Source of the DNA: an uncultured Gammaproteobacteria bacterium
GTDB taxonomy: Bacteria; Patescibacteriota; Patescibacteriia; UBA9934; GWF2-40-263
DNA: 64,000 bases
Direction: 5' to 3'
NCBI GenBank assembly: GCA_964616135.1
Contig: CAZTTQ010000001.1
Span: 43,875 to 107,874, forward strand
The notes under the pieces were generated by a model that worked only from the letters and a program-made list of their open reading frames with translations, was not told the origin of the DNA and searched no databases. The position numbers and the translations under genes are program-made. Below are positions 51,743 to 59,386 of the stretch, piece by piece; positions within the stretch are counted from its first letter, which is position 1, and the number at the start of each line of letters is the position of its first letter.

Positions 51743-52282
51743 TTAGGCGGCGTCCTTCAACAGCGCGCGGAACCGGTCGCGCAGCTTGTCCATTTTAGGA
51801 TTGATGACCAGGCGGCAGTACGCCTTGTCCGGGTTGTTTTGGAAGTACTGGCGATGATACGCCTCGGCCGGATAGAACGCCGGGAGCGGGGCGATTTCCG
51901 TCACGACCTTCTTTCCTTCCTCATTCAACTTGGAGACGAACGCCTCCGCGGCCGCCTTTTGCGCCCGCGTCGTGTAAAAGACGACGGATCGGTACTGCGT
52001 GCCGATATCGTTTCCCTGCCGGTTCAATGTGGTTGGGTCGTGCGTGGCGAAAAACACCGTCAGCAGGTCGTCAAAGGCGACGACTGCGGGGTCGAATTCC
52101 ACACGCAACACCTCCGCGTGGCCCGTTTCACCCGTACAGACCTGTTCGTACGTCGGGTTTGGCACCGATCCGCCCGCGTAGCCGGGCAGGACGGACGTGA
52201 CGCCCTTCAGTGATTCGAACACCGCCTCCGTACACCAGAAGCACCCGCCGCCGAACGCGACCGTCTCCAACATGGAAGCCAT
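51743..52282 (-). CDS. msrA: peptide methionine sulfoxide reductase MsrA
   Basis: GGGCFWC active-site motif. Confidence 0.9.
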   Translation of the reverse strand: MASMLETVAFGGGCFWCTEAVFESLKGVTSVLPGYAGGSVPNPTYEQVCTGETGHAEVLRVEFDPAVVAFDDLLTVFFATHDPTTLNRQGNDIGTQYRSVVFYTTRAQKAAAEAFVSKLNEEGKKVVTEIAPLPAFYPAEAYHRQYFQNNPDKAYCRLVINPKMDKLRDRFRALLKDAA

Positions 52283-54386: not shown

Positions 54387-54797
54387 TTACGCTTTGCGTA
54401 CGACGGCGTTAAAGGCGGCGGACGCTTGCTCCGGCGGAATGCCGAACTTGCCCAACTGCTTGATGACCTTTTCTTCCTTGGCGCAGTTGCCGCAGAAATT
54501 GGAGACGTTGCGATCCAACCCGACGTGCGCGTACAGGTCACGCCAGACGGCCAGGCGGTCCATGAACTTTTTTACCGAACCGAGGCTGGATTTCCACAGC
54601 GTGCCGTTCAGGCCGAAGCGCCAGTGCGCCCACAGCTGGCCGAAATGCATCACGTCGCCCCACTCTTCCTTCATCCCCGCCTTGTTCCACTTAACGACCT
54701 CCACGGCGAATTCAACCACCTCCGCCCACACTTCTTTGAAGCGGACGCGGTCTTTTGACGTGAACTTCTCGATGTACTCCCGGATGGTCATGTCCAT
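54387..54797 (-). CDS. MazG-like nucleotide pyrophosphohydrolase domain protein
   Basis: EVVEFAVEVV...EEWGDVMHFGQLW resembles MazG EExxE/EELGD motifs; alternative ATG at 54836. Confidence 0.5.
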   Translation of the reverse strand: MDMTIREYIEKFTSKDRVRFKEVWAEVVEFAVEVVKWNKAGMKEEWGDVMHFGQLWAHWRFGLNGTLWKSSLGSVKKFMDRLAVWRDLYAHVGLDRNVSNFCGNCAKEEKVIKQLGKFGIPPEQASAAFNAVVRKA

Positions 54798-54836
54798 ATG
54801 GCGGCCATGGTACGATATCGCAAACGTTTCGCCCAT

Positions 54837-55229
54837 ATGCCCAGTATTCCCGCCGACCTTCGCAAGGCCCTTGCGGCTAACCCTGTAGTCGCGGCCAAGT
54901 GGAAGGACCTTACGCCCGTCTCCCGCCGGGACTTCACCCGTTGGATCGAAGGGGCGAAGCAAGAAGCGACCCGCAAGCGCCGCGTCGTGGTCGCGTGCGA
55001 CAAACTGAAGCGCGGCGACCGCCGCCCGTGCTGTTACGCCGTGGTCCCGATGCCGCTCTACCGCGCCCTGGGCGCCAACCCAAAGGCCAAAGCGGCGTGG
55101 AGCGCCCTTTCCGCCGACCACAAGCGCGACCTGGTCGACTGGGTCGAATCCCCCAAGCCGCCGGAGACGCAAGCGGACCGGATCAAACAAGCGTGCGTAA
55201 AACTCGCCACTGGGAACGTCCGTGCGTAG
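54837..55229 (+). CDS. YdeI/OmpD-associated family protein (tandem helical repeats)
   Basis: LRKALAANPVVAAKW...RRDFTRWI and second repeat YRALGANPKAKAAW...RDLVDWV. Confidence 0.5.
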   Translation: MPSIPADLRKALAANPVVAAKWKDLTPVSRRDFTRWIEGAKQEATRKRRVVVACDKLKRGDRRPCCYAVVPMPLYRALGANPKAKAAWSALSADHKRDLVDWVESPKPPETQADRIKQACVKLATGNVRA

Positions 55230-55933: not shown

Positions 55934-56374
55934 TTATTCAAGGTTGAGCGCGCGTGTCGGTTTCATGATGGCAAGCGGGTCTGTTTTCCACGCGTCGGAA
56001 ACGTCCGCGTACAGTTCAAGCTCGTTTCCGTCCGGGTCCAGGATGTAGATGCTGTGCGTCACGCCGTGGTCGCCCGTGCCGATGATGGGCACGCCTTTCT
56101 CCTTCAGCTCCTTGTACGCCTGCTTGGCGGCTTCCGGCCCGTCGCCGATCTTGAAGCCGATGTGGTACAGCCCGGGCTTGGTTTCTTCCTTGCGTTCCGG
56201 TTCCCCGCCCACTTCCAGCAGCAACATTTCATGGTGCGTGCGCCCGGCGGAAAACGCCGCCGCTCCCGGCCGGCGCGTCAGTTCCTGAAACCCAAGCGTG
56301 TCGCGGTAAAAATCCGCGGAGCGCTGCAGGTCGCTCACGAAGAGCACGACATGGCCGAGTTCGAGGATGTGCAT
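55934..56374 (-). CDS. VOC-family protein (glyoxalase I-like)
   Basis: MHILELGHVVLFVSDLQRSADFY...HIGF typical glyoxalase-fold metal ligands. Confidence 0.7.
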   Translation of the reverse strand: MHILELGHVVLFVSDLQRSADFYRDTLGFQELTRRPGAAAFSAGRTHHEMLLLEVGGEPERKEETKPGLYHIGFKIGDGPEAAKQAYKELKEKGVPIIGTGDHGVTHSIYILDPDGNELELYADVSDAWKTDPLAIMKPTRALNLE

Positions 56375-56381
56375 AGAAATT

Positions 56382-56398
56382 TATTCCCCTTTCGTTAA
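56382..56398. repeat. left copy of 17-bp imperfect direct repeat TATTCCCCTTTCGTTAA bounding low-GC island
   Basis: 15/17 identity with 58533-58549; positioned exactly at the GC-content break. Confidence 0.45.
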
Positions 56399-56441
56399 GC
56401 CGTTGTCGGAAACGAACTAGACCAGCGGGGTATAGGAAAAA

Positions 56442-58238
56442 CTATAGGTTTGTATCTATCCAATCAAAGATCTGGTTGAATCGAGTAATTGTGTCGATAT
56501 GAATTTTTTTCTTAGTAATTGATCCATCCGACACTTTCTCAAAAAAAGATTTAGCAAATACAATCTTCCGTTTTTCACCGATGGACTCAGCTGGATCTGT
56601 TTTTTGAACAATTTTATCGTCAATTAACTTTAAGTCATCCAAATGAAGTAGGTTTTCTACGGATGAAATTCCAATAGTGATATACATCTTGGAGGCAGCA
56701 GCTCCCTCGTCTTTTTCGAAGAGATGTTCTTTGATTTCTTCGTAAGTTTTTTGAGAATCTTTTCCTCGCGAAGAATCGTCATCGAAAATTGCGACCCAAG
56801 AAATACCGTAACCAATACAAAATGAAACTAGAGTGTATTGTTTTCTGACACCTATTCCCGGTATGAAGGCGTAGTCTGCAATATCACGTTTGAGGAGGGT
56901 TCTCATTGCACTGTAGTAATAAAAATCTGAAACTCCTTCCAGAATCACACTCTTTTTATTTGTCAGCCCAAAATCGCTTACCGAGAAGCCAATAGCATTT
57001 GCCACTGGCTGGAGTGCATCTTGTTTATTCTGAGAATCAATTTTGGAGGAAGTGATATTCTCTATCAATGTTCCTTTGGTTTTATCATTTACGATGAGGT
57101 GTATTCTTTCAAGATGATCTGTCCTGATCAAATTTGGCGAATGAGTTGAGTAGAGAAATTGATGCCCCGTTTTTGTTAGAGATTCAAATACATTGAGGAT
57201 GTCGGTCTGAGCTTTTATATGAAGATAGAGTCCGGGTTCATCCGCTAAAACAATCAATTCTCTCTCATGACCACTCGCCTGTAATTCCATCCAAAAAGAA
57301 AGAAACCATACCAATCCCTTACTCCGCATTCGGGGACGAATTTTTTGTTTATCCTTTGTCTCAATATAAAAACTTACAAAAGTGTCATCTTCGGAAGATC
57401 GTTTTTCGAATTTATAGGCAATTTTTACTCTATTATCACCGTGAATTTGTTGCTTCCATGCTTTTGTAAAATCAATCGATATAGCTTCATTATGTTTTTC
57501 CTCAATAGAGTCTCTCTTCAAGTCATCTAGACTGTACAGAGTTTTAAAATCTGCACCTGATATTTTTTCAAAGTTTTTTACGGCCTTATACCCTTTTGAA
57601 TCTTTTTTGTCGCTTTTTAGATCCTTAAGCGAGAAGGTGTCTGGCAATAGATCGCAGAAATCATTAAACAAGATGATTTTAGGAGTATGGTTCCAGAATA
57701 ACTCAGCGACTTCTGAATTCTGATCGTCAGTAAGTTCAATAATCTTTTTCCTCTCCTTCTTTACTGGAGCAACTTCTGCCTCCACATTAACGTCTTCTTC
57801 AAGAATAGAGCTACGAAAGATCTGAAAAACTGCTTCAGGGATAGATGTCTGCACCTTTTTAGAGGGATTTAGCGTTCGAGTAATTTTAAAATCTTTTACC
57901 GTGCGTTTCAGTTTTGGGATGTCAATTAATGATCCGACTTTAGCTCGCTCAATCTCATTCTGTTCACCAAATGTTTTTTCAATTTCATCCCAAAAATCAG
58001 AATCCGATTCTTCAATTTCGTATGTGCATGACACCTCTTGAATTGGTGACTCAAAATCAAATGGTATGGAATCTGATTCAAATTCTGCGTTTTCAAAAGC
58101 AGCCAGACCCTCTAAAATAGAGCTTTTACCAGACTCATTTTGACCAGCGAAAATTGCAATTCTCCCATTACCTAAAGAAATCTCTCCAGTATCCTGAATG
58201 GACTTATAATTCTTAATTCGGAATGATTTCAATTTCAT
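56442..58238 (-). CDS. OLD-family ATP-dependent endonuclease (ABC-type ATPase + C-terminal Toprim), standalone
   Basis: The ATPase half has Walker A GQNESGKSS, Walker B LIVLADEPGLYLH and H-loop STHSP. The Toprim half has Glu (VILEGVSD) and DxD (IFDDDS). Gene GC is ~35% against a ~65% background. Confidence 0.75.
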   Translation of the reverse strand: MKLKSFRIKNYKSIQDTGEISLGNGRIAIFAGQNESGKSSILEGLAAFENAEFESDSIPFDFESPIQEVSCTYEIEESDSDFWDEIEKTFGEQNEIERAKVGSLIDIPKLKRTVKDFKITRTLNPSKKVQTSIPEAVFQIFRSSILEEDVNVEAEVAPVKKERKKIIELTDDQNSEVAELFWNHTPKIILFNDFCDLLPDTFSLKDLKSDKKDSKGYKAVKNFEKISGADFKTLYSLDDLKRDSIEEKHNEAISIDFTKAWKQQIHGDNRVKIAYKFEKRSSEDDTFVSFYIETKDKQKIRPRMRSKGLVWFLSFWMELQASGHERELIVLADEPGLYLHIKAQTDILNVFESLTKTGHQFLYSTHSPNLIRTDHLERIHLIVNDKTKGTLIENITSSKIDSQNKQDALQPVANAIGFSVSDFGLTNKKSVILEGVSDFYYYSAMRTLLKRDIADYAFIPGIGVRKQYTLVSFCIGYGISWVAIFDDDSSRGKDSQKTYEEIKEHLFEKDEGAAASKMYITIGISSVENLLHLDDLKLIDDKIVQKTDPAESIGEKRKIVFAKSFFEKVSDGSITKKKIHIDTITRFNQIFDWIDTNL

Positions 58239-58438
58239 AGGGTATGTCAGAAACTGGTTCAGAGTTATCTATTAAACTTATCGACTTTGGGTAGGAGCTC
58301 GCTCGCAAGAATATTGATCAACACATCGCGACACACCCCAATCGCTGCGCTGCCCAGCTTCCCAAAATTATTCTTTTGAATCTTCGTAGTTTGCATCATA
58401 AACGAAAGGATGATCGTCAACGGAGTCAGAAACATTAA

Positions 58439-58475
58439 TACTCCCGTCGGATTTGAACCGACCAGGCCACAAGCA
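58439..58475 (-). tRNA. tRNA 3'-half-like fragment (T-arm GTCGG-TTCAAAT-CCGAC + acceptor 3' strand GGGAGTA); no complementary 5' half found
   Basis: Canonical T-stem-loop read on minus strand; cannot complete a cloverleaf, so probably an att-site remnant/pseudo-tRNA. Confidence 0.35.
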
Positions 58476-58531
58476 AGCCCCTGCCAGAATCGACAATGTT
58501 GTAAAGGTTCTCTTCTTCTAACGTATCACCC

Positions 58532-59386
58532 CTATTCCCCCTTCGCTAATTCAACCGCTTTCTTTCCCACCATCATTGCCAGGCCGCCGCCGGGGACGAA
58601 GTTGGCCAATTCTTTTCCAAATTCAAAGATCTCGTCGTTGCTGAAGGAACGGCGGAGTTTGTCCGTGATCTTGTTCGCCTTGGGACGCAGTTCGCCCGTG
58701 ACGCCGTCATAGGAGACGGTGACGCGCTTGTCCTTGGCCTTCCAGTGGAATTCAAACGTGTAGATCGGCACGAAGTAAAGCGCCAGTTCATTAATGGCGA
58801 TTTGTTCGTCCAAAATCTGGTCGGCCTGGATGGGCTTGATGAGCGCGTTTACGACTTTGCGAACGAGGAAGGCGGGCTTCGCCTCGAGTGCCACGATCGG
58901 CGTGCCGTCTTTGGTCAGCGCGTCGGTGGTTTCGATGGGTTGGCTCAAGTACGTCAGGTATTTGGCAAAGCCCGGGTCCGCTTGGCCCGTTTGCGCGTCC
59001 ACGATTTCTTCTTGCCGGTATTCTTCCACGCAGCGTTCGACCCCTTCCACTTCAAACGTCTTTCCCTGCGGAGGCACGGTAAACGACGTACCGAGCAATT
59101 CGATTTCCTTCACCATCGGCTCCACGGGAACGTGGTAGGCCTTGCGGCGCTTGTATTCAAAGCGGGAGGAACCGAGCACGCGCCAAAAGGCGTCGTAGCG
59201 CTTTTCCTCATACACGACGTCGATGTCTTCCGGCAGCGGGCGGCTGAACAGCCCGGCGAGGAGACCGAAGGCTTTGACTTTGTGCGCCTGGGCGAGCTCC
59301 TTGGCTTTTTCCATGCCAAGGACGTCTTCCAGGACCAGAAGCTTTTCGCCGTCGATCTTGATGTTGCTGATTCCTTCGCCGGGCAT
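58532..59386 (-). CDS. hypothetical protein (284 aa)
   Basis: Clean ORF with moderate GC; no family recognised. Confidence 0.55.
   Translation of the reverse strand: MPGEGISNIKIDGEKLLVLEDVLGMEKAKELAQAHKVKAFGLLAGLFSRPLPEDIDVVYEEKRYDAFWRVLGSSRFEYKRRKAYHVPVEPMVKEIELLGTSFTVPPQGKTFEVEGVERCVEEYRQEEIVDAQTGQADPGFAKYLTYLSQPIETTDALTKDGTPIVALEAKPAFLVRKVVNALIKPIQADQILDEQIAINELALYFVPIYTFEFHWKAKDKRVTVSYDGVTGELRPKANKITDKLRRSFSNDEIFEFGKELANFVPGGGLAMMVGKKAVELAKGE
58533..58549. repeat. right copy of direct repeat TATTCCCCCTTCGCTAA
   Basis: Overlaps stop codon of 58532..59386. Confidence 0.45.

Follow-up and report, generated by a model that had tools for sequence, protein, structure and literature searches.

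Near one end of a small foreign cassette carrying an OLD-family gene, in a Candidatus Uhrbacteria-like (Patescibacteria) genome, lies a 24-base sequence that resembles the 3′ part of a tRNA gene. We consider the chances about even that this fragment is an inert relic of an earlier integration at a tRNA site, which came in together with the cassette. The evidence comes from a stretch of 64,000 nucleotides with 62% G+C, referred to here as the window, and from its comparison with related contigs.

A T-arm-like hairpin and acceptor-like strand without a tRNA

The fragment, read on the minus strand, begins with a T arm that has a perfect 5-bp Watson–Crick stem, closed by a pair of the G53–C61 type, and a fully canonical T loop; the bases that follow occupy the position of an acceptor 3′ strand (Table 1). 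It is preceded by gtggcctg and followed by ttaatg. The original prediction had placed a T-stem-loop and acceptor 3′ strand on this strand, and the sequence bears this out; the range given at that time, 58439-58475, consists of the fragment and 13 upstream bases without tRNA likeness.

ARAGORN, run over all 64 kb, reported 0 tRNAs and 0 tmRNAs and recognized no complete cloverleaf; it also reported 0 genes in L001. Rfam returned no match at gathering scores, and its tRNA and tmRNA models returned none at E ≤ 10 between 58200 and 58800. In the 2.3 kb upstream of the fragment, we found no 5′ strand that could pair with GGGAGTA, with G–U pairs allowed (pattern T[AG][CT]T[CT][CT][CT]), and none of the candidates beyond this distance is followed by D-arm-like sequence. 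The 69 bases upstream of the T stem resemble the 5′ parts of matching tRNAs no better than shuffled sequences do. Similarity to tRNA stops abruptly at the T stem, and the bases at the position of the variable loop, GCCTG, are not tRNA-like. No further copy of the fragment with up to three mismatches was found elsewhere in the window. Because the sequence is present, the ARAGORN and Rfam searches are empty, no 5′ strand was found and the upstream bases behave like shuffles, the earlier description of a tRNA 3′ piece without a 5′ partner is correct. The fragment is not a functional tRNA gene: both the cloverleaf and the complementary 5′ acceptor strand are missing.

Table 1. Features at and around the tRNA-like fragment (positions in the window)
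Feature	Position	Strand	Description
284-aa host gene, left flank of the cargo	58532..59386	-	Conserved; relatives at 54-97% identity across Patescibacteria; no Pfam domain
Left copy of bracketing direct repeat	58533..58549	-	TTAGCGAAGGGGGAATA; final 17 nt of the 284-aa gene, not counting the third base of the stop codon
Strain-specific low-G+C cargo segment	56379..58531	-	About 2.15 kb (2151 bases); delimited by similarity breaks to relatives and by G+C
Cargo leader	58239..58531	-	293 nt, 45% G+C; apparently non-coding; holds the fragment
tRNA-like fragment	58439..58462	-	24 bases, read from 58462 to 58439: T stem GTCGG, T loop TTCAAAT, T stem CCGAC, then GGGAGTA in acceptor-3′-strand position
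OLD-family ATPase/nuclease gene	56442..58238	-	Full-length, 598 aa, 36.5% G+C; only gene of the cargo
Possible degenerate second T-arm copy	56405..56425	-	CTGGTCTAGTTCGTTTCCGAC against CTGGTCGGTTCAAATCCGAC at 58465..58446; 16/21, one gap
Right copy of bracketing direct repeat	56382..56398	-	TTAACGAAAGGGGAATA; 15/17; at the right cargo end; 7 nt separate it from the glyoxalase ATG
Glyoxalase/VOC-family host gene, right flank of the cargo	55934..56374	-	Pfam Glyoxalase at 1.5e-21

A foreign cassette with a solitary OLD-family gene

With the stop codon of the conserved 284-aa host gene 69 bases upstream, the fragment lies at the start of a sharp trough in G+C content (37.9% in the cargo compared with 62.3% for the window). 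The cargo consists of the leader, which contains the fragment, a gene for an OLD-family protein and a 67-nt tail. The fragment has the orientation of the OLD gene, whose start lies about 200 nt further downstream.

The OLD protein has an N-terminal ABC-type ATPase domain, matched in Pfam by AAA_15 (1.1e-19, residues 1-371) and AAA_21 (5e-12). In PADLOC it matches Old at 4e-24, with the profile aligned to residues 321-488, and AriA at 2e-22; the Pfam OLD-like_TOPRIM match is weak (E 0.058) and below the gathering score. Homologues with 60-67% identity over the full length come from other CPR lineages. For all six of the closest homologues looked up, the gene is part of a type I restriction–modification (R-M) operon, preceded by hsdS or a fused hsdM-hsdS and followed by hsdR. 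A YgjP-like gene is often found downstream of the homologues in these operons, and a large serine recombinase stands beside two of them (L010 and L012). The gene in the window is solitary, with hsdM, hsdS and hsdR all absent; it has lost the R-M partners that surround all six homologues looked up. The homologue loci are L010, which has the fused hsdM-hsdS, L012-L019 and L030 (for example, L012:1490-10295). Neither a tRNA nor GGTTCAAATCCGAC was found near the OLD homologues at 11 loci.

Type I R-M systems have been reported on genomic islands of Patescibacteria (PMC12455944). A search of the literature for OLD genes inside type I R-M operons found nothing useful.

The leader shows no similarity to the DNA of the homologues or of the relatives. 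Three candidate identities for it were considered and rejected. As a remnant of hsdS, it gave nothing by tblastn with five HsdS proteins, by Pfam at E ≤ 10 or by hhalign profile comparison. An open frame of 86 codons runs across the fragment; HMMER matched it only to itself and, spuriously, to plant NLR leucine-rich repeats, matches that are amplified by the repeats. Finally, GGTTCAATCC occurs at a similar offset in the cargo of the relative L028; the alignment score of the leader with that cargo equals the shuffle mean, and tblastn was negative.

The searches for viral relatives of the OLD protein and for a plasmid match to the cargo were both negative. The cargo was also rejected as an insertion sequence or transposon, with no terminal inverted repeat (best score 12 compared with a shuffle mean of 16.5) and no transposase ORF. 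No integrase, recombinase or transposase domain was found by Pfam in 17 ORFs between 36.5 and 60.3 kb, 6 of which had no match of any kind; several ORFs in this interval and those in 60.3-64 kb were judged by translation only. The search for an integrase covered 36.5-64 kb of the window.

A strain-variable site bracketed by a 17-bp repeat

Short metagenome contigs carry three close relatives, ranked by identity of the 284-aa protein: L027 (97%), L028 (92%) and L029 (85%). As far as the stop codon of this gene, their DNA shares about 83-85% identity with the window. The similarity ends at 58529-58532 in all three and resumes at 56378, before the glyoxalase gene, in L028 alone. The downstream gene of the relatives begins 3-7 nt past the stop codon. 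It is an unknown gene in L027; a 193-aa gene of 40% G+C, followed by a glyoxalase homologue (80% identical), in L028; and, in L029, a homologue of a gene found 3.7 kb further on in the window. Neither these three contigs nor eight more distant relatives have a tRNA at the locus. With four different downstream genes in four close strains, the DNA after the 284-aa gene appears to be a strain-variable spot. Each joint of the cargo is contained in Logan contigs that were assembled independently and match the window exactly as substrings, and the cargo is therefore not a binning artefact.

The sequences around the stop codon were compared over 58529-58549 in the window, L027:4310-4340, L028:1330-1360 and L029:1305-1335. 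The downstream genes of L027 and L029 have only their first three codons (ATG CCC GAY) in common and then diverge, a pattern that suggests recombination within about 20 nt. The 193-aa gene of L028 (L028:1357-1938), with a coiled-coil-like N terminus and a hydrophobic C terminus, fills the slot of the OLD cassette and is not bracketed by the 17-mer repeat described below.

An imperfect 17-bp direct repeat brackets the cargo in the window (Table 1). Its left copy is conserved at 15-17 of 17 positions in the close relatives. When the 17-mer was sought with up to three mismatches on both strands of the window, only these two sites were found, compared with 0.05 expected; because the copies sit at independently defined boundaries, the contribution of chance is negligible. 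Both mismatches fall in the left half of the right copy, which leaves an identical GGGGAATA. Such a pattern fits a recombination event in which two similar sites shared a short crossover region; the repeat could also have begun as a long target duplication that later mutated. A cargo-free junction would read ...GGGGGAATAG joined straight to ATTTCTATGCAC. A candidate third copy of the 17-mer near 54860 falls within a plus-strand gene's coding sequence and requires a gap of 5 nt; it was therefore dismissed as coincidence.

A possible degenerate second copy of the T arm (block CTGGTC-GGTTCAAATCCGAC) is located near the other end of the cargo. Its local alignment has p of about 0.07-0.09 against shuffles and random pieces of the window, which is not significant alone.

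Likeness to real tRNAs and to chance

The first 22 bases of the fragment, GTCGGTTCAAATCCGACGGGAG, occur exactly in five metagenome contigs and always inside real tRNAs. Three of these are tRNA-Thr(CGU) of high-G+C organisms, and the other two are tRNA(CAU), both from Candidatus Saccharibacteria, a CPR lineage of the same superphylum. The Saccharibacteria tRNA(CAU) matches the fragment at 23 of 24 bases (acceptor GGGAGGA compared with GGGAGTA in the fragment), and tRNA-Thr(CGU) at 22 of 24. The last two acceptor bases of the fragment, TA, differ from those of all matching tRNAs. In viral contigs, the 22-mer had 0 matches, and a 19-mer matched only an unrelated phage tRNA-Gly. As the five bases that follow the T arm fit two isoacceptor types in a huge database, the identity of the 22-mer contributes little that the T arm does not already give. 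It shows that the fragment is tRNA-like without pointing to a parent tRNA, and it could be combinatorial.

In the Saccharibacteria contigs (L023:2912-3713 and L024:6355-7155), the CAU tRNA belongs to a cluster of the order Phe-Gly-(CAU)-Thr-Tyr-Trp and has an apparent A1-A72 mismatch at the top of its acceptor stem. Each contig also has an extra T-arm motif, at about 3510 in L023 and about 6952 in L024, that ARAGORN does not assign to a tRNA.

We estimated how often such a hairpin would be expected by chance. The sequence GGTTCRAWTCC is expected 0.22 times per window. The full T-arm motif, defined as a 5-bp stem closed by G53-C61, a loop TTCRANN and at most one G-U pair, occurs 0.16 times per shuffled window and at least once in about 14% of block-shuffled windows. 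The window has a second T-arm-like hairpin at 52224..52208 on the minus strand (CGGTG-TTCGAAT-CACTG, with one G-U pair), which lies in high-G+C DNA; it is clearly a chance match and serves as a measure of the background. The seven-base 'acceptor strand' GGGAGTA is unconstrained and has no statistical weight by itself. The fragment rises above this background because of where it lies, namely in the non-coding leader (293 bases) that belongs to the one foreign segment seen in the window. The probability that a chance T-arm hairpin would fall in these 293 of 64,000 nt is of the order of 0.001-0.01, judged post hoc. Overall, the fragment is only moderately above chance.

It is quite possible, if short of probable, that the fragment is a look-alike: a hairpin that arose in AT-richer non-coding or decayed DNA, was never part of a tRNA and has no function. 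Consistent with such an origin are the background just described, the loss of tRNA-likeness outside 22-24 nt, the division of the 22-mer matches between two unrelated isoacceptor types, and an RNA fold around the fragment that is no more stable than shuffles (z = -1.2). The window also contains no parent tRNA, and neither an integrase nor a significant second copy was found. However, the stem is perfectly paired and the loop fully canonical, the position in the foreign leader would be a considerable coincidence, a CPR tRNA matches at 23 of 24 bases, and a weak second copy is present at the other end of the cargo.

Origin of the fragment

Short tRNA 3′ blocks serve as att cores for elements that integrate into tRNA genes. 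If the fragment is a relic of this kind, it would comprise the T arm plus the first 5-7 bases of the acceptor strand, all derived from a tRNA gene's 3′ part. It may have been left by an integration that took place earlier, in a former host or a former, larger island, and would then have entered the Candidatus Uhrbacteria-like genome as a passenger within the leader of the 2.15-kb cassette. The present insertion made no use of it. The cassette fills exactly the interval from the stop codon of the 284-aa gene to the glyoxalase gene, and the imperfect 17-bp repeat around it was copied from the end of the 284-aa gene. We infer all three of the properties that make the fragment a relic, namely its descent from a tRNA, its former role as an att core and its present lack of function.

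Several observations argue for such a relic. The exact 22-nt identity is to genuine tRNAs in 5/5 metagenome matches, and the closest match over the whole fragment is with a tRNA(CAU) from the same superphylum. The fragment is in the leader of the only foreign segment seen, whose limits are set by three close relatives as well as by the bracketing repeat. The OLD gene belongs to mobile DNA elsewhere, type I R-M systems are reported on Patescibacteria genomic islands (PMC12455944), and the weak T-arm copy at the other cargo end points in the same direction. Against a relic stand the roughly 14% shuffle background together with the other chance hairpin, and the abrupt end of similarity with its non-tRNA GCCTG and deviant acceptor TA. 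Also against it, no integrase, parent tRNA, convincing second copy or homologous island bordered by the block was found, and no tRNA lies near the OLD homologues.

The original prediction had gone further and pointed to the attL or attR duplications from which such fragments typically stem when an integrase targets the 3′ end of a tRNA gene. This interpretation is supported in part. It gains from the finding of foreign DNA beside a defence gene, as acquired DNA of this kind is an expected place for tRNA-derived att relics; it loses in that the fragment is not the joint of the present insertion, no integrase was found and the relatives have no tRNA at the site. The fragment begins 68 bases inside the left cargo boundary (58530 / 58529-58532), and the repeat that brackets the cargo is a different 17-mer; it is for these two reasons that it is not the joint. 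For the fragment to be a present-day att site, an integrase would have put a low-G+C element into a tRNA gene here, leaving the fragment as the attL or attR core, and the 5′ part of the tRNA would have been deleted later. The orientation fits attL, with the host gene upstream and the foreign DNA downstream, the 22 nt of tRNA identity are typical of the size of an att core, and there is a possible degenerate direct copy near the other cargo end. However, in the relatives with 85-97% protein identity the 284-aa gene is followed by the next gene after only 3-7 nt, with no tRNA in between; more distant relatives also lack a tRNA there. In the close relatives, similarity to the window breaks off 68 nt short of the fragment, and a significant repeat of another sequence brackets the cargo. 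Moreover, the 17 ORFs scanned with Pfam contain no integrase domain, and the window has no complete tRNA. We consider a present-day att site quite unlikely. The att idea holds only for a relic that an earlier integration left and the cassette brought along; chance is still a serious rival to it.

Very unlikely, in our judgement, is a second kind of active role, in which the end of the 284-aa gene in the Uhrbacteria lineage would be a dedicated site for cassette exchange and the T-arm hairpin, with its weak copy, a working part of the cassette. A recombinase encoded elsewhere would then swap single low-G+C genes at the 17-bp core TTAGCGAAGGGGGAATA, and the hairpin, far from being debris, would serve either as a signal for recombination or as a tRNA mimic that controls the nuclease.

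A related and highly unlikely explanation is that the hairpin in the leader is a functional tRNA-like element, either an RNA signal (a tRNA mimic, or an element for processing or stability) or a recombination site for cassette exchange. Its place in the leader, on the same strand as the OLD gene and about 200 nt ahead of the start of that gene, would suit such an element, and an OLD gene without R-M partners might conceivably be under different control. However, the leader is absent from all homologues and belongs to no Rfam family, its predicted structure is not unusually stable, and RNase P and the CCA-adding enzyme both require a paired acceptor stem, which the fragment lacks. The hairpin is not followed by a terminator-like run of T, is also absent from a terminator scan and was rejected as a terminator. 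That the fragment is half of a split, permuted or intron-containing tRNA gene with its 5′ half elsewhere is scarcely credible: the 3′ piece is well formed and a downstream ACUCC can pair with GGAGU, but the 2.3 kb upstream are conserved protein-coding DNA with no 5′ acceptor candidate that has a D arm, the downstream sequence has neither a D nor an anticodon arm, tRNA likeness is absent from the bases before the T stem, ARAGORN reports nothing, and split or permuted tRNA genes occur in archaea and a red alga and are not known in bacteria.

Relation to known systems

Islands with a tyrosine integrase of the P4 type are an example of integrative elements that use tRNA sites. K.P. Williams, in Nucleic Acids Res in 2002, reportedly described tRNA-gene att sites and the direct repeats of tRNA 3′ sequence that flank genomic islands and prophages. 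The present case is similar in that a short block of T arm and part of the acceptor strand lies in acquired low-G+C DNA with a defence gene. It differs in that neither end has a complete tRNA, and in the lack of an integrase and of a significant second copy. The block is also 68 nt inside the boundary, whereas the repeat that brackets the insertion is an unrelated 17-bp sequence from the 3′ end of a protein gene, and the last two acceptor bases depart from all matching tRNAs.

The OLD family of ATPase/TOPRIM nucleases includes Old of phage P2, and its 'class 1' proteins are encoded by single genes. The 598-aa protein of the window is similar to this family in its N-terminal ABC-type ATPase (AAA_15/AAA_21) and its PADLOC matches to Old and AriA. 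In E. coli, prrC sits between hsdS and hsdR of a type I R-M operon, the same placement as that of the closest homologues of the window's OLD gene. Unlike these ATPase genes lodged in R-M operons, the gene in the window has no hsdM, hsdS or hsdR, and the TOPRIM match of its product is weak (E 0.058).

The insertion site resembles strain-variable defence hotspots. Four close strains have four genes after the same 284-aa gene, and the window and L028 have both flanks in common with different low-G+C cargo between them. It differs from such hotspots in that no recombinase was found near the site, the bracketing repeat is present only around the window's cargo, and the comparison comprises a few short metagenome contigs.

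The fragment itself is ordinary in kind, a tRNA-like scrap in acquired DNA. Integrative elements commonly leave orphan tRNA 3′ pieces behind in such DNA, and the present piece, which may even be a chance hairpin, matters little in itself. More useful is the exact anatomy of a small, recently acquired defence-gene cassette in a streamlined CPR genome, at a strain-variable spot that lies at the 3′ end of a conserved gene and is marked by a 17-bp repeat. This spot could be mined across Patescibacteria metagenomes for the gain and loss of defence genes in small genomes.

Other differences between strains were noted nearby. Compared with L029, the window has about 3.7 kb of extra DNA, which comprises the OLD cassette, two VOC/glyoxalase genes, a 100-aa ORF and a plus-strand ORF. 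The minus-strand ORF at 54387-54830, listed with 322 aa, is probably about 140 aa long; its homologue in L029 begins at window position 54791. The upper part of the listed ORF overlaps a 143-aa ORF on the plus strand (54798-55229). In L027, a 754-aa gene with a DUF5122 match (L027:109-2373) lies between homologues of the 348-aa and 222-aa genes of the window; it is absent from the window and marks another nearby strain difference.
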